Positions 1 to 8,566 of a stretch of 8,566 nt of DNA are shown in pieces. Source of the stretch: a virus (lineage: Duplodnaviria; Heunggongvirae; Uroviricota; Caudoviricetes); IMG/VR virus record IMGVR_UViG_2671180710_000015. One strand, 5' to 3'. How positions within the stretch are numbered: position 1 is the first letter of the stretch; each line of letters opens with the position of its first letter. A model generated the notes under the pieces. It saw nothing but the letters and a program-made list of their open reading frames with translations. It was not told the origin of the DNA and searched no databases. A program made the translations under genes and the position numbers.

Positions 1-927
1 TCAGCTTTTCGCCAGAACGGTGACGGCCTTATCGAGTTTTTGCCATCCGCAATAGGTGATTGCCCTGAACGCTGTAGCGTCATTCTGGAAAAGGCTAACC
101 GTCCCTGATTCGGTTTTTATTACCGCCTCATCAGTTGGGGTTATAACCGTGGCTTCAACGTTAATAATCAGCTTTTGAGCGTCTATCAGCATCATGCGAT
201 CCGCCTGTTCGCTCACAATTACCGGTATTCTCAAAAGCTCTATCTGCCAGAACTCAGCATCAGTAAGCTGTAAGGCGTTTTCTACGGGCAAGATTAGCGA
301 CGACGTGGCAAGCGTGTTACCGTTCGCTATGTGCTTTTTGAAAAGCTCTATGAAGTTTTCGGCCTCATCAGCACCATTAAGCACGCCCTCAGGGGATACG
401 CCCGCCACCTCCTGGTCACTGGAAAGAAATTTTTTATCTATTTCTTTCACCGATTCCGATGTGATCAAGTCTCTGATCGCTGAATTGGCACCAGGGGTGC
501 TAAATTTGATTAGCTCGTTATTCAGCATCACAATAGCGCCAAGTTTGCACAGTTTTAGCGCACTTTCGTTTACTTCTCCCTCTTTGACAGGGATTTCTTC
601 GGCTTCTTTAAGCCATTTACTACCCTTGCCTGATATTGACTGCAATTTTGCGCCAAACGGAAGATTCAGCGCGCTGCTGATTAGCTTGCCTGGTACAGAC
701 TGCGAAAAAATATACTCGCCAAGCTCTCTTACTATCGGCTCTGCCACCAGCGACGGCATATTATCCGTAGTCATTCCGGCAACAATGGATTTTTCAAGAA
801 ATTTCGATACTGCCGGATCATTTTTTTTCGTCATTTCAATTGCGTCTGCATGGCTGAATTTACACGATGTAAGCACGCTGGCGGCGCGAACTGCCGACAC
901 GCCTTTCATGTTTTTAGAAATCATCAT
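1..927 (-). CDS. HK97-fold major capsid protein (satellite-encoded)
   Basis: Complete 308-aa ORF (ATG 925-927, stop at 1-3). Strong SD AGGAGG about 6 nt upstream. Blocks KLGAIVMLNNELIKFS, FLSSDQEVAGVSPEGVL and the C-terminal IPVIVSEQ...LFQNDATAFRAITYCGW resemble conserved blocks of HK97-type capsid proteins as I remember them. No N-terminal delta domain. Confidence 0.65.
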   Translation of the reverse strand: MMISKNMKGVSAVRAASVLTSCKFSHADAIEMTKKNDPAVSKFLEKSIVAGMTTDNMPSLVAEPIVRELGEYIFSQSVPGKLISSALNLPFGAKLQSISGKGSKWLKEAEEIPVKEGEVNESALKLCKLGAIVMLNNELIKFSTPGANSAIRDLITSESVKEIDKKFLSSDQEVAGVSPEGVLNGADEAENFIELFKKHIANGNTLATSSLILPVENALQLTDAEFWQIELLRIPVIVSEQADRMMLIDAQKLIINVEATVITPTDEAVIKTESGTVSLFQNDATAFRAITYCGWQKLDKAVTVLAKS

Positions 928-1075
928 CTTCTTCCTCCTGGTAACATGGGGTTAGGGTTTCGTGAAAATATGGCATCAGAACAGCGGCAGCCTGTAACCG
1001 TATTTCGGTTGGCTGCTGCTTGTCGTTCATGATTTCCGTGAGTACATCAATAGGGTCTGTGATGTATTCGCTCAT
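914..1075 (-). CDS. small acidic-tailed hypothetical protein (53 aa), below ORF-track size cutoff
   Basis: Hand-translated: MSEYITDPIDVLTEIMNDKQQPTEIRLQAAAVLMPYFHETLTPCYQEEEDDDF. ATG at 1073-1075 sits 11 nt after the terS stop with a GAGGT SD; its 3' end overlaps the capsid start in another frame. Confidence 0.4.
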   Translation of the reverse strand: MSEYITDPIDVLTEIMNDKQQPTEIRLQAAAVLMPYFHETLTPCYQEEEDDDF

Positions 1076-1086
1076 AGTTCGCTACC

Positions 1087-1575
1087 TCAGTGTTTTAAGC
1101 CAGTTGGTGGCTTAGGGATGGGGAACCGATTTGAGGAGACATTAGCGGCATTGAGTTTTTTAACCTCTTTTTTCCCAATGCTGCCGATCTTGCGGTGGGT
1201 GAACTGGGCCAGCTTAAACGCGGCATCTAAAGCCAGTTTTGGATCTGTGTCCATGTTGTCAATCAGTATCCTGCCCATTGCTTTGATGGGGTCGGGTAGG
1301 CCGTTATCCATCATCTCAATGGTGTTAATTGATGCCCGTTCCGGTGTAACTTTTTCGGTAACTTTCTTTGTAACTTTTTTCGGTTTTGTAACCTGAAAAG
1401 TTACATCAGAAGTTACAGCCTTAAGATACTTTTTCACCTCCGGATCATTGGATAGCTGCCAGCCTTTAACCCTTGCAGTCTTTTCGCTGTATCCCGCATG
1501 TATCGCGGCTTCCGTTGGATTTGTGCCCTTTGATAACGCATCAGCAAACCGCTTTTTTTTGGTCGTTAATGCCAT
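1087..1575 (-). CDS. terS: terminase small subunit (P27/Terminase_2-like HTH N-terminus)
   Basis: From the internal Met: MALTTKKKRFADALSKGTNPTEAAIHAGYSEKTARVKGWQLSNDPEVKKYL matches the remembered TerS N-terminal pattern (K..F...L..GN.T.AAI.AGYS.KTA). GAGG SD about 9 nt upstream of ATG 1573-1575. The track ORF extends to 1692 across repeats and a homopolymer tract, so that extension is probably not translated. Confidence 0.8.
   Translation of the reverse strand: MALTTKKKRFADALSKGTNPTEAAIHAGYSEKTARVKGWQLSNDPEVKKYLKAVTSDVTFQVTKPKKVTKKVTEKVTPERASINTIEMMDNGLPDPIKAMGRILIDNMDTDPKLALDAAFKLAQFTHRKIGSIGKKEVKKLNAANVSSNRFPIPKPPTGLKH
1346..1416. repeat. phased GTAAC repeat array inside terS (12-bp unit GTAACTTTTTCG-like; six copies, two inverted)
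   Basis: GTAAC at 1346, 1358, 1370 and 1388; inverted GTTAC at 1400 and 1412. Spacing is 12 bp within each triplet. On the coding strand this encodes the KKVT/EKVT peptide repeat of TerS. Confidence 0.7.
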
Positions 1576-1599
1576 GCAAAAACCTCGTTTTGAGGGGGT

Positions 1600-1621
1600 G
1601 TAACTTTTCGTGTAACTTTTT
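1600..1621. repeat. two further GTAACTTTT copies in the terS leader (non-coding), same 12-bp phasing
   Basis: GTAACTTTTCGT GTAACTTTTTTG at 1600-1621, immediately upstream of the terS SD and start. Confidence 0.6.
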
Positions 1622-1704
1622 TGAAAAGCAAAATTTTCTATGAATGAGACGGGGGGCGGTGTCCAGGGCGATCGACTTTCCGGCCGGAACACTCCCCCCC
1701 CCTG

Positions 1705-1868: not shown

Positions 1869-2063
1869 TTATTCCTCACCTGTTGCAATGCCCAGGCGTT
1901 CGCGTAACAGCACGCGAGCAAGATGGCCTACTGTTGGCGTGGCGGCTCTGCCGTATATACCAGCTTCATTCATCCGGCGAATAACATCGAATTGAAGTTT
2001 TTTAAGCTCGTTTAGGATCTCGTGATCAATCATCACGGTAGCGCTTTGCTTTATCTGTTCCAC
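1869..2063 (-). CDS. small hypothetical protein (64 aa), GTG start
   Basis: Track ORF. Start codon is GTG (plus 2061-2063 cac) preceded by a consensus AGGAGG SD 7 nt upstream. First gene of the leftward late operon. Confidence 0.6.
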   Translation of the reverse strand: MEQIKQSATVMIDHEILNELKKLQFDVIRRMNEAGIYGRAATPTVGHLARVLLRERLGIATGEE

Positions 2064-2181: not shown

Positions 2182-2454
2182 TTAGCTGTCTGGGTAATTA
2201 CGCCATACTTCATCGCCTGCACCATCTATACCCATTTCAGCATAAGTGCGATCGACTGCCTTTCTCAGGTCTCCGAAGTTATCCGGCGGCTCCGGTGGCT
2301 TCTGTGCCTTCCTGGAACATTCCAGCCGTCGCATCGTAACCTGATACCGTTCCTTGTCTGTCTCCACCAGCTGCATGACTTCACCCCATCGCGCCGCCGC
2401 CCTCCGGTAAAATCCTTTCGCCTCGAGTTCCTCCGCTATGCGGTCATGTACCAT
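2182..2454 (-). CDS. PerC-family-like small transcriptional regulator (about 90 aa)
   Basis: Motif AEELEAKGFYRRAAARWGEVM resembles the remembered PerC/Pch signature. Start chosen at ATG 2452-2454 with a GGGGGTGAGG SD just after the SSB stop; the 126-aa track ORF would overlap SSB by about 100 nt. Confidence 0.5.
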   Translation of the reverse strand: MVHDRIAEELEAKGFYRRAAARWGEVMQLVETDKERYQVTMRRLECSRKAQKPPEPPDNFGDLRKAVDRTYAEMGIDGAGDEVWRNYPDS

Positions 2455-2464
2455 CCTCACCCCC

Positions 2465-2863
2465 TCAGAACGGAATACCATCACCGTAAGGGTCATCGCC
2501 TCCCGCTGGTGGCTGATTACCCTGTGTGCCTGTGGTTTTGCGTCTGTTCCCGCCTCGGGCACTGATTACGCTGTCTGCGATAACCTGCCAGCCCTGCCGC
2601 GTTTCGCCGTTCTGGCCTGTCCACTGGCTTACCTGCATCGTGCCGGATACGCTGGCAACATCGCCTTTTTGATGTTTAGCCAGGAAGTCGGCCTGTTTGC
2701 CAAATGCGATGACCGATAACCATAACGTCGCCTGTCCGTCCTGTGCCTGGCTGCATGGCAAAGATACCGCCATACGCGCCAGCGTCATCGGTGTGCCCTT
2801 GCTGGTCTGTTTTACCTGCGGGTCGTCCACCAGCCGCCCGTAAGCGGCTATCTGTGCCGTCAT
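2465..2863 (-). CDS. ssb: single-stranded DNA-binding protein
   Basis: OB-fold pattern WLSVIAFGKQADFLAKHQKGDVASVSGTMQVSQWTGQNGETRQGW and the diagnostic acidic C-terminal tail DDPYGDGIPF. GGAGAGG SD; ATGA start/stop overlap with the upstream ORF. Confidence 0.9.
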   Translation of the reverse strand: MTAQIAAYGRLVDDPQVKQTSKGTPMTLARMAVSLPCSQAQDGQATLWLSVIAFGKQADFLAKHQKGDVASVSGTMQVSQWTGQNGETRQGWQVIADSVISARGGNRRKTTGTQGNQPPAGGDDPYGDGIPF

Positions 2864-3119: not shown

Positions 3120-3315
3120 ACCTCTCACTTTTTCGCCTCACTTTTTCAAGCGTCTCACTTCGTCGCAGTTGGGATTTTCGGTTTTTCTATGTGTGTGTTT
3201 CATAAGTATTTTTTTACCCCCTCACTTTTGAGGATGTATACAGGTCGAAAAGTGAGGGAGAGCGGGCTAATTTTGGCCCTCTTTCTATCCCCCTCGCTTT
3301 TGCTCCTCACTTTTA
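3120..3315. repeat. iteron-type replication origin (seven CCTCACTTTT-like repeats plus AT-rich tract)
   Basis: CTCACTT cores at 3124, 3137, 3154, 3221 and 3306; inverted copy AAGTGAG at 3250; variant CTCGCTT at 3293. AT-rich tract about 3182-3218. Lies immediately 3' of the rep gene. Confidence 0.6.
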
Positions 3316-4710
3316 TAGCGGCGCTACATCATCCCCATCGATACGAATAACCCCATCTTTTTCCAGCTTGTACAGCCAGCGCCGGAAGTTTTTCATTTCA
3401 TACCCCAGCTTTTTCATGTCATCACGTAACAGCGGGATCGTGCACTTGTCGCCGTTCTGTGTGCGTGAACGGATGCACCCCCATAGCGCGGTATGGTTTT
3501 CCGTCTTGTTCCCTGCCTCCTCGATGCGCTCCAGTTCAACAGGAGGGCGCGGATCATCCACCACCACCAGCGACGTGATTAATTCACCGTCAGCGTCGGT
3601 AAAAAGCTCCACCACGCGTAAGTCATATGCGGCTTCTTTGAGTTCCTCCGCGTCCTTCATTTTGGTGCATGAGATAACCAGCGCTTCGCTTCCTGCGTCC
3701 TCCCTGCGTATCCGGTATTCAGCATCCAGCGAAGCACGAAATGCACTGGAACCGCGCGCGCCTTTCGTCTCATCCTTGCCGGAATGGTGAACCACCAGCA
3801 CCGTGGCCCCTGTGCGTCGTTTAAGCTCGTCACAACCACGGATAAACGCCCCCATATCACGGGAATCATTTTCATCATTCCCACCAAAGCAACGCGCCAG
3901 AGTATCCAGAATAATCATGCGTACAGGTTTACCCGTTTCCCGCTCCACCTGACGGGCAGCGATAACCATTTCATCAACATCAAGCGGGGCAGCCGGAAAG
4001 ATGGGACGGTTTACCAGATACAGATTTTTCACCTGTTCACCGTGCACAACCTCCCAGGCTTTTACACGACGCGGAACGCCGATACCGCCTTCACCAACCA
4101 CATAGAGAACCGCACCATGCGCCACCCTGCGGCCTCCCCACTGGCGGCCCGTGGAAACGTGACACGCCCACGATCCGGCAAGGAATGATTTATAGGAACC
4201 GCTCGCCCCGTATATGCTGCAAAGCGATACCGCCGGAATAATTCCCTTCACCACGTAATCAAGCTGCGTGTCGTATCCGGCAGATCCCACGCTCATTGGT
4301 AGCTTGGTTTTTCGCTGGTGGCTCAGGCTTTCCCCGCGTTCCCATGTCTCCCTAAGCCGTGGAAGCTGGTCGCTCCATTCCTCCAGCAATTCGAAATTTT
4401 CAGAAAACAGGCGCGCTTCCTGGACTCCTGCGATTGCCAGTTTCGTGGCGATGGTTAACAACTGCACTTCGTCAATATTTCCGGCACGTATCACTTTCGC
4501 CCTGTATCGCCCATCATCCACAATCTGGAGGTTATCCAGTTCGCTTAACTGATAACGCCCCAGGTAAACGGGAGGGACTGGATCGCCTGCTTTTTTGGCC
4601 TGTGCAATGATGTAGTACTCTGCAAATGAGTGAGCATTATCACCCGCAAAAATAACCGCTTCGGTGTGTTTATCTTTCGGTAACAGTTTTACGTTCGGTG
4701 CCAGTTTCAT
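3313..4710 (-). CDS. replication initiator/helicase (RecA-fold AAA_25, DnaB/RepA-like) with winged-helix-like C-terminus
   Basis: 465 aa. Walker A GASGSYKS, Walker B-like MIILDTLARCF, LVVHHSGKDETKGARGSSA. Not P4 alpha-like: no SF3, toprim or zinc-finger motifs seen. ATGA overlap with the upstream 99-aa ORF. Confidence 0.85.
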   Translation of the reverse strand: MKLAPNVKLLPKDKHTEAVIFAGDNAHSFAEYYIIAQAKKAGDPVPPVYLGRYQLSELDNLQIVDDGRYRAKVIRAGNIDEVQLLTIATKLAIAGVQEARLFSENFELLEEWSDQLPRLRETWERGESLSHQRKTKLPMSVGSAGYDTQLDYVVKGIIPAVSLCSIYGASGSYKSFLAGSWACHVSTGRQWGGRRVAHGAVLYVVGEGGIGVPRRVKAWEVVHGEQVKNLYLVNRPIFPAAPLDVDEMVIAARQVERETGKPVRMIILDTLARCFGGNDENDSRDMGAFIRGCDELKRRTGATVLVVHHSGKDETKGARGSSAFRASLDAEYRIRREDAGSEALVISCTKMKDAEELKEAAYDLRVVELFTDADGELITSLVVVDDPRPPVELERIEEAGNKTENHTALWGCIRSRTQNGDKCTIPLLRDDMKKLGYEMKNFRRWLYKLEKDGVIRIDGDDVAPL

Positions 4711-5429: not shown

Positions 5430-5502
5430 AAATTTACCTCTCTATAGTGTTTGTGGTTAGACGCCCTGCATGTGTTCCAGCACTGTGGGGCGTTGTTTTT
5501 TG

Positions 5503-5547
5503 GTGCAAGTCACCTTGAAATCTAGGTTACTTTTAGGTGACTTGCAC
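5503..5547. promoter_or_regulatory. paired operator-like sites: 12-bp perfect inverted repeat GTGCAAGTCACC-N21-GGTGACTTGCAC
   Basis: Arms at 5503-5514 and 5536-5547 are exact reverse complements. Each arm is itself GGTG-N5-CACC-like. Located in the divergent region between the rep operon and the plus-strand RHH gene. Confidence 0.45.
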
Positions 5548-5574
5548 TTCAAGTCTTTTTTTATTTTTTTTTCT
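5539..5574 (+). terminator. terminator-like hairpin plus long T-tract (alternatively an UP element or insulator)
   Basis: GACTTG-cactt-CAAGTC (5539-5555) followed by T8-A-T10 (5556-5574). It overlaps the right operator arm and sits just upstream of a TATACT -10 (5578-5583). Confidence 0.3.
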
Positions 5575-5613
5575 CCGTATACTGAACACCACCTAACAGT
5601 AAGGAGAACAGAG

Positions 5614-5793
5614 ATGCCAACAGGTACAACCAACAACAAGTCACAACAAAAAACTGCTAGAGTACCTCTAGACGTTTTAAGCGAAATGAATTTGGTAAAA
5701 GAAGAAAACGAAACAGACGCACAATTTATCGTTACTGCCATGCGCGGCGAAATCAAACGCCGCCAGCGTCGCAAGGCCAAAGAATCAGAATAA
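5614..5793 (+). CDS. small ribbon-helix-helix-like DNA-binding protein (59 aa)
   Basis: Hand-defined start: AAGGAG SD (5601-5606) 7 nt before ATG 5614. MPTGTTNNKSQQKTARVPLDVLSEMNLVKEENETDAQFIVTAMRGEIKRRQRRKAKESE shows a strand-helix-turn-helix pattern. The 107-aa track ORF is an N-terminal over-extension across the operator and T-tract. Confidence 0.5.
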   Translation: MPTGTTNNKSQQKTARVPLDVLSEMNLVKEENETDAQFIVTAMRGEIKRRQRRKAKESE

Positions 5794-5850
5794 TCACTAT
5801 CAGCGCCGTGGTGTGAGGTACTACGGCGCATTGCTTTACAGGGCAGTACC

Positions 5851-6078
5851 ATGACCAACAACACACTATCACCAATACAAGACACGCAAACGCAAGATGA
5901 TGAAATCATCCGGCAAAGGCAGTCAGAAGCCTGCGCCAGACTTGAGGAAGAACTAACCAGAACAAAAATACCACCACCAGCGCCGCGCTTAGTGCCACCA
6001 GAAAAATTTGCCCTTGAAGATTTTGTCGATAAATACCCACGGCGGCTTAAATCCGGCAAAAACCGACCGCCAGGATGA
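5851..6078 (+). CDS. hypothetical protein (75 aa), acidic N-terminus, Pro-rich basic C-terminus
   Basis: Track ORF. Weak SD; preceded by hairpin GCGCCGT-N13-ACGGCGC (5803-5829) and followed by hairpin GAAACGG-attatt-CCGTTTC (6098-6117). No family recognised. Confidence 0.4.
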   Translation: MTNNTLSPIQDTQTQDDEIIRQRQSEACARLEEELTRTKIPPPAPRLVPPEKFALEDFVDKYPRRLKSGKNRPPG

Positions 6079-6297
6079 GTGCACAAAACCGAACTATGAA
6101 ACGGATTATTCCGTTTCCGGGGCGTTTGTGTGTGTATAAAGAGTAAGCTATGCTCTTTTATAGCCATAATCGTTACCTCAATTAATGGTTTGGTTAGAAG
6201 CCCGTTGGTGTTCATAGCGCCAGCGGGCTTTGCTTTTTGTGTTGATTGTGTGTAATATGTCACTACACATAAATACATTACATGAGGTGTAATTAAC

Positions 6298-6477
6298 ATG
6301 TCAATACACAAAAACGAAAGGCGTGGTAATCCTCCGTTCCAGTTCCGTTTAGATCCTGACTTACGGGAAAAGATGGAAAAGGCACAACAACATGACGGCG
6401 ATGATTCTCTTGCTGCCTGGATAAAGCGAATAATCCGCAAAGAATTACAGCAACGCGGCATAGAACCCAAAGGGTAA
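6298..6477 (+). CDS. Arc/MetJ-type ribbon-helix-helix DNA-binding protein (59 aa), below ORF-track cutoff
   Basis: Hand-translated: MSIHKNERRGNPPFQFRLDPDLREKMEKAQQHDGDDSLAAWIKRIIRKELQQRGIEPKG; PFQFRLDP strand plus two helices is the classic Arc-like pattern. GAGGTG SD; candidate promoter TTGCTT-N17-TAATAT (6230-6258); GTGTAAT repeats at 6250 and 6287. Confidence 0.6.
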   Translation: MSIHKNERRGNPPFQFRLDPDLREKMEKAQQHDGDDSLAAWIKRIIRKELQQRGIEPKG

Positions 6478-6565
6478 TTACATTGCCCACCAGCCTGATA
6501 GCGGCTATCATTCCCGTGCTTATGTTTGGGATCACATAAGGCGCAGCAGGTTAATTGTTCACAAG

Positions 6566-6594
6566 GGCGTTCCGGCAACGGGGCGCTTTTTGTT
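6566..6594 (+). terminator. intrinsic terminator (GNRA tetraloop hairpin plus U-run) closing the plus-strand module
   Basis: 9-bp stem GGCGTTCCG / CGGGGCGCT with three G-U wobbles, GCAA loop (6575-6578), then TTTTTGTT. Sits 28 nt from the convergent alpA stop. Confidence 0.5.
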
Positions 6595-6621
6595 ATGTTC
6601 ATCGTGTTATGCCTCACACCA

Positions 6622-6828
6622 TTACGCAGCCGTTCCGCGTGCTTCCTGCTCACGTTCTTTCATCCATGCGATTACGTCTTCCTCATACCATCCGCGACGG
6701 CGTAAACCAACGCGAAAACCCTGCGGAAATTCTCCGGCGTTGATCATGCTTTGAAGCGTGCTGTCTGCCTTGATGTGGATAAGTTTTTTTACTTCCTGGC
6801 GAAAGATGACTTTTTTGATTGCTTCCAT
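6622..6828 (-). CDS. alpA: AlpA-family phage transcriptional regulator
   Basis: 68 aa; STLQSMINAGEFPQGFRVGLRRRGWYEEDVIAWM matches the AlpA HTH family pattern. AAGG SD. Co-directional with int as in Gram-negative PICIs. Confidence 0.85.
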   Translation of the reverse strand: MEAIKKVIFRQEVKKLIHIKADSTLQSMINAGEFPQGFRVGLRRRGWYEEDVIAWMKEREQEARGTAA

Positions 6829-7324: not shown

Positions 7325-8566
7325 CTAAACGGCTCGGATACCCCTTTTACCACTGGCGAGGGTTACGCCCGTCGCCGCAGCCTCGACAAATTCGCCCCAC
7401 CAGCGCATAAGCACCACGCGTTTTTCTATGTAGTTGCTCCGGTTGTATGCCCGTCTCACTTCGTTAGTGTCGACGTGGGCAAGTGCGGCCTCGATTACGT
7501 CCGGCTCGAATCCTTCCTCGTTCGCTGCTGTACTGAATATGGCGCGTAATCCATGAGACACCAGCACGCCAGCGAACCCCATGCGTCGTAATGCTGCGTT
7601 TGCTGTCTGGCTGTTCATTGGCTGCCGTGGGTCTTTCAGACTCGGGAAAACATAATCGCGGTGGTGGCTGATTGGTTTCATGGCCTCCAGCACCGCCATA
7701 GCCTGACCGGAAAGTGGGATAACGTGATCCCTGCGCATCTTCATGCGTCCGGCGGGTATCGTCCAGCGTTGCGCGTCCAGGTCGATTTCATCCCACCGCG
7801 TTGATGACGCTTCGGCGGGACGGGTTACGGTCAGTAACTGCCATTCAATCAGTAATCTGGTCTGCCGTTCTGTTGCCGATACTGATAAAGCCTGCATAAG
7901 CTCCGGCAACTGTTCGGGGCGGATTGTTGGCATATGTTTTTTTACAGGGGAGGGGAACGCCTTACGCACATTCATAGCCGGATTGGCATCAATCAGCCCA
8001 CTGTTGGCGGCGTAATCCATTACCTCATTAACGCGCTGTAAAACCCGTTTGAGTGTTTCCAGGTTGCCGCGCTCCTTGATGGGGGTAAGCACCTCAACGA
8101 ACCTGCGAGCGGTCAGGGTGTCTATTGGGGTGTTGCCGATGAACGGGAATACATATTTATCCAGCGATCGCCAGATGTCTTTAATCGTGTTGGGGGCCAG
8201 ATTCTGGCTGATTTTCACCTGGTACCATGCCGCCGCCACATTTTCGAACGTGTTCCCTTGTCTTCGGGCCTCTGCCTCTCGTTTTTTCTTCTCATGGCCC
8301 TGCGGGTCAGTTCCGGCACTGATTAACGCTCTGTACTCGCTACGGCGTTTTCTGGCATCAGCCAGGGAAACATCATCAAGCGATCCAAAACTCAGCAATA
8401 TTCTTTTTTTGTCCGATGGCCGGTAGTAGGAAAATCGCCAGAGTTTTGATCCGGACGGTTTGACCAGGAGAAAAAGCCCTCCGCCGTCCTGTAGGGTGTA
8501 TTCCTTTTCCGCTGGTCTGGCTGCTTTGATCTGCACCGTGGTTAATGGGGGTGTTTTTCTCGCCAT
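7325..8566 (-). CDS. int: tyrosine-type site-specific integrase, P4-like
   Basis: 413 aa. N-terminus MARKTPPLTTVQIKAARPAEKEYTLQDGGGLFLLVKPSGSKLWRFSYY matches the P4-integrase arm-binding pattern; C-terminal HGLRAIFSTAA and RRAYNRSNY carry the His/Arg box and catalytic Tyr. ATG is the last codon of the window, so an upstream start cannot be excluded. Confidence 0.9.
   Translation of the reverse strand: MARKTPPLTTVQIKAARPAEKEYTLQDGGGLFLLVKPSGSKLWRFSYYRPSDKKRILLSFGSLDDVSLADARKRRSEYRALISAGTDPQGHEKKKREAEARRQGNTFENVAAAWYQVKISQNLAPNTIKDIWRSLDKYVFPFIGNTPIDTLTARRFVEVLTPIKERGNLETLKRVLQRVNEVMDYAANSGLIDANPAMNVRKAFPSPVKKHMPTIRPEQLPELMQALSVSATERQTRLLIEWQLLTVTRPAEASSTRWDEIDLDAQRWTIPAGRMKMRRDHVIPLSGQAMAVLEAMKPISHHRDYVFPSLKDPRQPMNSQTANAALRRMGFAGVLVSHGLRAIFSTAANEEGFEPDVIEAALAHVDTNEVRRAYNRSNYIEKRVVLMRWWGEFVEAAATGVTLASGKRGIRAV

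Follow-up and report, generated by a model that had tools for sequence, protein, structure and literature searches.

Why should the gene for a small terminase subunit (TerS) carry the same short DNA motif, at a regular spacing, both within its own coding sequence and in the DNA that precedes it? The question is raised by a stretch of 8,566 nucleotides (the window) from a Caudoviricetes record (IMG/VR record IMGVR_UViG_2671180710_000015), which is an E. coli phage satellite of the phage-inducible chromosomal island (PICI) type, about 9 kb long and inserted at tRNA-Pro, and whose minus strand holds all the real genes of the window. A preliminary description of the window had proposed that repeats of the GTAAC type in and before terS form a pac site or a TerS-binding site. 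We conclude that the repeats are probably a cosB-like recognition array for the satellite's own SF6/SPP1-type TerS. The features on which this conclusion turns are the following.

1087-1575, minus strand: terS, 162 residues, Pfam Terminase_2
1345-1351, 1357-1363, 1369-1375 and 1387-1393, minus strand: four forward sites in the terS linker, encoding V76T77, V72T73, V68T69 and V62T63
1399-1405 and 1411-1417, plus strand: two inverted sites with AGTTACA on the plus strand, encoding V58T59 and V54T55 as GTA ACT
1599-1605, minus strand: leader site 2, TGTAACT on the plus strand and AGTTACA on the terS strand, A-tract on the 5' side, offset +43 from the cos anchor
1611-1617, minus strand: leader site 1, nearest to cos, offset +31 from the cos anchor
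1622-1702, minus strand: candidate cos core, shared with helper-type prophages, with G-run/C-run inverted repeats

GTAAC starts on the plus strand at positions 1346, 1358, 1370, 1388, 1600 and 1612, and its reverse complement, GTTAC, at 1400 and 1412, giving two inverted copies and eight copies in total, six of them inside terS (1345-1417) and two in the leader (1599-1617). The earlier count of eight is therefore correct, as is the claim that the repeats occur in both coding and non-coding DNA. The uniform 12-bp spacing ascribed to them holds for the leader pair and for most gaps of the coding cluster (12, 12, 18, 12 and 12 bp) but fails at the 18-bp gap, and the copies are not all of the single type described, two of the eight being inverted and only six matching the full 7-mer. 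The common core is AGTTACA/TGTAACT, with an A-tract on its 5' side. It is found exactly at 1345, 1369, 1399, 1411, 1599 and 1611 and nowhere else in the window; the copies at 1357 and 1387 are each one base off. The clustering and the 12-bp phasing far exceed chance. Over 1000 dinucleotide-preserving shuffles of the window, the number of 7-mer cores averaged 0.67 (maximum 5) against 6 observed, every one of which lies within the two clusters; pairs at a spacing of exactly 12 bp averaged 0.024 (maximum 1) against 5 observed; and the biggest cluster per 80 bp averaged 1.8 copies (maximum 3) against 6 observed. Tandem Repeats Finder likewise reports period-12 arrays at 1346-1384 and 1598-1620, and the leader (1597-1622) matches the gene (1343-1368) over a 26-nt block of two units that is 85% identical. 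All six coding copies are the Val-Thr codons of the peptide AVTSDVTFQVTKPKKVTKKVTEKVTPE.

We compared eight diverged terS loci, down to about 54% protein identity. The DNA of the relatives came from E. coli, Salmonella and metagenomic satellites, from a Hafnia alvei prophage and from the metagenomic contig L014, and in these last two the gene for the large terminase subunit (terL) adjoins terS. The relatives were gathered one protein at a time; a profile scan of genome contigs with the TerS alignment gave one locus, from Arsenophonus. The Val-Thr linker is kept in homologues of the satellite TerS down to 52% identity, and its codons are nearly frozen: in all 32 linker Val-Thr dipeptides of the eight loci the valine codon is GTT or GTA, a pair that makes up 53% of the valine codons in the window's other genes (P about 2e-9), and the threonine codon is ACT in 11 of the 13 cases that follow GTA, and ACA or ACC after GTT. 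At four-fold sites of invariant residues elsewhere in terS, 3-5 different codons are seen. The inverted copies also keep the extended motif, in that T always precedes GTAACT and the codon after it is usually T-rich (TTT or TCT), which partly restores the A-tract on the opposite strand. Non-coding copies with the consensus AAAAGTTACAC number from one to six in every relative with a readable leader, so that no such relative has kept the coding repeats and lost the leader copies, and the order of inverted and then forward copies is retained in most relatives. From these comparisons we conclude that the repeat is selected as DNA and not merely as a peptide, as the preliminary description had argued from the leader copies. 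The Val-Thr peptide repeat looks like a by-product of the DNA sites, since it lies in a tolerant linker that is predicted to be disordered, and the locus would be a clear case in which the sites of a presumed binding protein constrain codon choice in that protein's own gene.

The number of copies varies among related islands, as had been envisaged, and does so by exact 12-bp units. L016 (3001-3465, protein P0003) lacks exactly two units, a 24-bp deletion, and the protein P0004 lacks one 4-residue unit, natural variants of the one satellite from which it follows that the linker array grows and shrinks in register. In L005 (2750-3000), a second type of E. coli satellite with its own HNH-like gene and a TerS that is 62% identical, six AGTTACA copies, two of which form a palindromic pair, stand in a leader of 227 nt, while terS itself no longer contains inverted copies. 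L005 suggests that leader and linker sites are interchangeable.

On their upstream side the leader copies adjoin the candidate cos core, which is nearly identical to the HNH-terS spacer of lambdoid prophages of the Stx type and lies beyond the interval treated in the preliminary description. Its inverted repeats pair 1651-1670 with 1681-1700 and 1643-1656 with 1696-1709. The segment 1622-1702 also matches many E. coli genomes at unannotated intergenic DNA, and the two matching places that we inspected lie between an HNH endonuclease gene and the terS-terL genes of lambdoid prophages. The 31-mer ATGAGACGGGGGGCGGTGTCCAGGGCGATCG (1644-1674) is identical in a prophage of E110019 and one base off in an O157:H7 prophage. 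Of 5426 complete E. coli genomes, 1244 carry this phage-type cos region; in strain E2855 the satellite is found together with four phage copies. Two phage records, MT225100.1 and MT344105.1, start at the anchor (CTCAYKCR) from which we count positions: MT225100.1 ends in ...GGACACCGCCCCCCCT and starts with CTCACGCAGAGAAAAAATTCC, which puts the record boundary within the core, and the linear record of the Acinetobacter phage fLi-Aba03 starts at the equivalent CGCACGCACAAAAAAAATTCC. Alignment to these record starts is suggestive of a cos end near 1648/1649.

An HNH gene adjoining terS and terL is given as a hallmark of HK97-like cos packaging in a passage of PMC13595911 that cites Kala 2014, and relatives with the same motif sit in HNH-terS-terL modules. 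A headful pac site would be expected outside any HNH-cos context; here relatives have the HNH-terS-terL arrangement and the candidate cos core is conserved. We therefore do not retain the label pac for this locus, given that the core at 1622-1702 matches the lambdoid HNH-terS spacer and that two phage records begin inside it. The repeats therefore resemble cosB, the site of recognition, and not the site of cleavage.

The array keeps its place relative to the core. Counted from the anchor, the first forward site stands at +29 to +33 in 10 elements, whatever the sequence of its motif, and at least one leader copy lies 29-33 nt from the anchor wherever the anchor can be located, although the start codon of terS ranges from +51 to +229. 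In elements with a short leader, a distal cluster follows at about +208 to +300, usually with the inverted copies before the forward ones; in those with a long leader, namely the Shiga toxin (Stx)-type phage and the L005 satellite, the distal sites are in the leader instead. The array therefore lies beside the candidate cos core, on its terS side and at a conserved distance, and is made up of repeats of a short motif that differs from one TerS lineage to another, all of which are properties of a cosB site.

The motif itself changes from lineage to lineage. The Stx-type prophage has five GTTAAC copies between the cos core and terS, of which four show AGTTAACA in full, and its terS contains none. 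Among the loci examined, AGTTAACA is absent from the satellite and AGTTACA from the prophage loci, so that the two motifs are mutually exclusive. The Arsenophonus locus has a ATCAACAT copy in the leader and an inverted pair, ATGTTGAC/GTCAACAT, in the linker; an Acinetobacter phage has AAAAGTTAAA in three leader and three linker copies, in both orientations; and a Bordetella phage has GTTAACA in leader and gene. About five motif classes thus track the TerS lineages within the same layout.

A scan of IMG/VR for GAAAAAGTTACACC returned mostly chance matches, the informative ones being three close copies of the satellite, L073 and L083. L073 (132-923) has an unrelated phage TerS of 263 residues, followed by HNH and terL, in which GTAACcGTAAC...GTTAC...GTTAC encodes VTVT...KVTEKVT on the N-terminal side of the Terminase_2 domain; the DNA motif and the pattern of orientations are like those of the satellite, and the position in the protein differs. 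In L083 (600-710), an unrelated viral contig, the AT-rich non-coding DNA 3' of a primase-helicase gene holds three TGTAACT copies spaced by 12 bp and, after them, three GTTACA copies in forward orientation, of which two read AGTTACA. The L083 array probably consists of origin iterons.

Which protein would read these sites? terS is the only packaging gene of the satellite with a DNA-binding domain, and its product is the sole tested protein of the window that is common to all AGTTACA-type elements. The Pfam match of TerS to Terminase_2 (PF03592; E 4.8e-11, 43.9 bits against a cut-off of 26.1) covers residues 3-57 only. The protein has an SF6 G1P-like DNA-binding domain (residues 3-57), a Val-Thr linker predicted to be disordered (57-84) and a C-terminal helical part; the AlphaFold model has helices at 5-56 and 96-146, and its predicted local distance difference test (pLDDT) score is below 50 over the repeat segment, 57-84. 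With Foldseek, the modelled DNA-binding domain superposes on the SF6 G1P domain (4zc3) with a template modelling (TM) score of 0.87 and a root mean square deviation of 1.5 Å, values that cover that domain only. A profile search of all PDB chains with TerS returned nothing but small terminases at E values up to 0.1. The TerS proteins of the satellite and of the helper-type phage are 45% identical overall, with 30 of 49 residues identical in the DNA-binding domain and 44 of 72 in the C-terminal part (61% each), and 30 of 43 in the C-terminal core; their linkers are unrelated. The satellite and the helper-type phage share the cos core but not the motif, so that the factor responsible for specificity is presumably encoded by the satellite. 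The small open reading frames (ORFs) at 1705-1866 and 1869-2063 were considered as the source of the binder and rejected, being absent from the Hafnia phage L007, which has the same motif. We infer that the satellite TerS binds the repeats, and of the functions considered for them TerS binding, which the preliminary description had put forward, appears to be the best supported.

For a cosB-like array we propose the following mechanism. The satellite would have kept the cleavage core (about 1644-1700) of HNH-dependent lambdoid phages of the Stx type and would have swapped the AGTTAACA recognition repeats of the helper for repeats made of an A-tract and AGTTACA. A TerS oligomer of the SF6/SPP1 type would attach through its helix-turn-helix (HTH) domains to the two proximal sites, at 31 and 43 nt from the anchor, and also to the distal cluster of six sites about 230-300 nt away (two inverted, four forward) in the codons of its own linker, so that the intervening stretch of roughly 230 bp would be bent or wrapped. 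With its conserved C-terminal part TerS would then bring the helper's large terminase subunit (TerL) and HNH protein to nick at the shared core, and satellite concatemers would thereby be selected for packaging. The earlier suggestion that a satellite must mark its own DNA would thus be met here in a sharper form, in which the cos core is shared and the repeat is AGTTACA in the one and AGTTAACA in the other. The helper would, by this account, be an Stx-type lambdoid phage. We also hypothesize, with less confidence than an even chance would warrant, that throughout the Proteobacteria HNH cos phages and their satellites share a cleavage core and switch specificity through lineage-specific TerS sites, placed partly in the codons of the disordered linker, so that terS would bear an address label of its own, the switch in the satellite being a single-base deletion in the core of the motif, from AGTTAACA to AGTTACA. 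On this hypothesis the satellite would use the TerL and HNH of the Stx phage while remaining unseen by the phage TerS, and mixed TerS rings that poison the packaging of the helper might also form, because the cores of the two TerS proteins are 70% identical.

Several observations weigh against the cosB-like reading. The choice of helper is founded on cos-core identity and co-residence; the record starts are suggestive only, and the annotation of MT225100.1 gives a circular molecule. That the motif goes with the TerS lineage is seen in about five classes only, between which TerL and HNH differ as well. The 12-bp array of the same 7-mer beside the L083 primase gene means that such arrays by themselves are not diagnostic of terminase sites. 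Finally, with its inverted sites the internal cluster folds stably as an RNA hairpin (-26.3 kcal/mol, z -3.8), and over 25 nt there is 84% complementarity between the leader copies and the inverted copies inside terS.

Other functions can be set against these data. If the array were a headful pac site, the repeats would be bound by TerS, and a TerL cut inside one cluster or between the two would begin headful packaging. In SPP1, whose TerS belongs to the same Pfam family, the sites used, pacL and pacR, stand on either side of the cut, and pacR is part of gene 1 (PMC6316719); in the satellite the two clusters likewise flank the coding region of the DNA-binding domain. However, the conserved core next to the array matches the lambdoid HNH-terS spacer, relatives with the same motif sit in modules of the kind that the cited passage of PMC13595911 associates with HK97-like cos packaging, two phage records begin in the core and the first site keeps its fixed distance from the core in 10 elements, so that we regard headful packaging as distinctly improbable. 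An autoregulatory operator or roadblock, by which TerS would keep down its own production while recognition for packaging took second place or happened at another locus, is unlikely as the principal function. Repression of its own synthesis through pac binding is reported for the terminase of SPP1, in a statement that PMC6316719 attributes to its reference 69, and in the satellite the sites stand 22-47 nt upstream of the start codon as well as within the gene. Nevertheless, the conserved distance is to the cos anchor and not to the start codon, which lies anywhere from +51 to +229, and a promoter scan of the leader on the terS strand found no sigma-70-like promoter, for which reason a promoter-operator role was set aside. 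The nearest such promoter is at 2126-2098, and terS is therefore probably co-transcribed from upstream. Autoregulation as a second role is possible.

A structure in RNA or single-stranded DNA, either a hairpin in the terS mRNA or pairing of the leader with the inverted copies, might instead control translation. The internal cluster (1335-1430, minus strand) does fold as the long, imperfect hairpin already mentioned, because the sites are inversely arranged, the complementarity with the leader is considerable, and the inverted pair is kept in several lineages; but L013 is without an inverted copy and has kept its forward copies, the sites of the Stx-type phage are all in the non-coding leader, the leader alone folds no better than shuffled sequences (z -0.96), the cores within the AGTTACA lineage are conserved as sequence and not through compensatory change, and pairing leaves both the 12-bp direct repeats and the fixed cos offset unexplained. 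We consider control by such a structure very improbable. Less probable still is a peptide repeat and nothing more, in which a (K-K-V-T)n linker is maintained by protein-level selection or slippage and the leader copies are due to chance or a recent duplication. The change of repeat number by 4-residue units agrees with it, and a lysine-rich linker could function in its own right, yet the linker codons of diverged homologues are frozen where other synonymous positions have reached saturation, the extended consensus recurs in non-coding copies wherever a relative's leader can be read, the inverted copies yield the same dipeptide from the other codon pair, and the linker of the helper-type TerS is unrelated and the segment predicted to be disordered. 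On the codon evidence we reject it. Scarcely any probability attaches, equally, to replication-origin iterons or an operator for another satellite regulator. The array beside the L083 primase gene is similar, but the satellite has a separate set of CCTCACTTTT repeats at 3123-3314, the usual place of a PICI origin (PMC6092414), and the AGTTACA array accompanies terS in phage-context loci that lack the satellite's small upstream ORFs, the replication and regulator genes having been outside that comparison.

How does a cosB-like array of this kind compare with known packaging sites? In phage lambda, cosB consists of the sites R3, R2 and R1, which are bound by gpNu1 and lie beside cosN. As in lambda, the satellite has short repeated sites on the terS side of the putative nicking site, the first of them at a fixed distance and presumably read by an N-terminal HTH of TerS, with a spacer dividing proximal from distal sites. 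The satellite differs in that its TerS is of the Terminase_2/SF6 type and not of the gpNu1 type, its cos would depend on HNH, most of its sites are inside terS and no site for the integration host factor (IHF) was identified in it. A comparison at the level of the protein is given by gp1 of SPP1, from the TerS group of SF6 G1P, whose two binding sites are pacL, in the leader, and pacR, within gene 1 itself (PMC6316719). The satellite TerS belongs to the same group, with a matching DNA-binding fold, and has sites in the leader and in the 5' half of terS. Whereas SPP1 cuts between its clusters and packages by headfuls, the candidate core of the satellite is upstream of both clusters in a cos and HNH setting, and its distal sites are in the codons of the linker, not in those of the DNA-binding domain.

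Among satellites, the Rpp islands (PICIs of the EcCICFT073 type) have kept cosN and changed cosB (PMC6739421, PMC9026076). The satellite in the window is, like them, an E. coli element with a helper's cosN-type core, a different cosB and a DNA-binding protein of its own that would redirect the helper terminase; unlike in those islands, the redirector would be a homologue of TerS over its full length, with 45% identity to the helper-type protein and with small terminases as its only matches in the PDB profile search at E values up to 0.1, the helper type is HNH/HK97-like and not lambda or phi80, and the array has eight copies, six of them in coding sequence. With SaPIbov5, a Staphylococcus aureus pathogenicity island (SaPI), the satellite shares a capsid-protein homologue and, it appears, the helper's cos and HNH-type packaging, and with the pac SaPIs it shares a TerS of its own, presumably to mark its own DNA (PMC6092414, PMC8569155 and general knowledge); unlike the SaPIs, it appears to join both strategies, a shared cos core and its own TerS with its own repeats. 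In HK97, also a cos phage with HNH, the TerS site is 15-29 bp downstream of the cos cut (PMC11331095), a short fixed distance as in the satellite. The HK97 TerS is without an HTH and uses a single site through its central channel, whereas the satellite has an SF6-type HTH and a multi-copy array.

In the literature that we searched, neither these repeats nor the packaging of this satellite family are described; the presence of terS homologues in Gram-negative PICIs has been noted but not analysed (PMC6092414). The principle of one cut site with different address labels is known from Rpp and from the TerS of SaPIs. What is new is that the protein which appears to put it into effect is a true paralogue of the TerS of an HNH-cos helper, the finding that the motifs of satellite and helper are one core base apart, and the placement of most of the predicted sites inside terS linker codons, an arrangement that recurs in distant lineages. 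If our reading is correct, a concrete packaging signal would be at hand for a satellite family that is common in E. coli (220 of the 5426 genomes), its likely helpers would be named as Stx-type prophages (cos region in 1244 of the 5426), and enterobacterial satellites would have, besides Rpp, a second route by which to change the address label and keep the cut site. The near-identical natural pair AGTTACA/AGTTAACA, together with matched SF6-type domains, would then be a model for DNA reading by small terminases, and a minimal cassette of cos plus sites would be defined for the engineering of transducible DNA.

A PICI is expected to have a terminal integrase, a regulator of the AlpA type, iterons beside a replication initiator, part of a packaging module, a length near 10 kb and a specific attachment (att) site, and the remaining gene content of the window agrees with this.

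7325-8566, minus strand: integrase
Minus strand: AlpA-like HTH gene
3313-4710, minus strand: AAA_25/RepA-type helicase
3123-3314, directly 3' of the helicase gene: iteron-like set of six CCTCACTTTT copies
2465-2863, minus strand: SSB gene
2182-2562, minus strand: homologue of PerC-family activators (Pfam E 1.4e-42)
1705-1866 and 1869-2063, minus strand: small ORFs
914-1075, minus strand: 53-residue ORF after terS, resembling the TerS core motif, with an acidic tail at its end
1-927, minus strand: HK97-family capsid homologue, 308 residues

Pfam searches of the window's proteins returned the AAA_25 helicase, SSB, PerC, TerS and the capsid homologue. The annotated E. coli copy (L001), which also carries genes for an integrase and an HTH regulator, is an island of about 9 kb between yejO and tRNA-Pro. 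At a coverage of at least 80%, terS and its leader region are found in 220 of the 5426 complete E. coli genomes, many of which are enterohaemorrhagic E. coli (EHEC). A search of the window against Rfam at gathering thresholds gave zero matches.

The CCTCACTTTT set at 3123-3314, where 0.77 copies would be expected by chance against the six observed, is the probable replication origin of the satellite, PICI origins usually being directly 3' of the replication or helicase gene (PMC6092414). It follows from this separate set beside the helicase gene that the terS repeats are not the origin. One of the six copies is inverted, two have one mismatch, and three perfect copies are 84-85 bp apart.

PerC-family genes are virulence regulators in enteropathogenic E. 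coli (EPEC) and EHEC. The longest ORF of the PerC homologue overlaps the 3' end of the SSB gene, so that the true start is probably further downstream. A minus-strand ORF of 398 residues at 5457-6653 looks spurious; the equivalent interval of L001 contains small genes (Icd-like, YlcI/YnfO-like) and long non-coding stretches. The capsid homologue (1-927) is present without any other head genes in the satellite, has relatives of 35-52% identity in other satellites and none in phage loci, and recalls Ccm, the protein of SaPIbov5 that redirects capsid size.

The 53-residue ORF (914-1075) reads ITDPIDVLTEIMND...LQAAAVLMPYFH, followed by the acidic tail. Two phage-context loci that have a gene for the large terminase, Hafnia L007 (3501-3629) and L014, carry it as well, between terS and terL. 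It may be a stand-alone paralogue of the TerS core, and a role as a packaging accessory is possible; its sequence aligns within the terS of Burkholderia, Bordetella and Acinetobacter phages.

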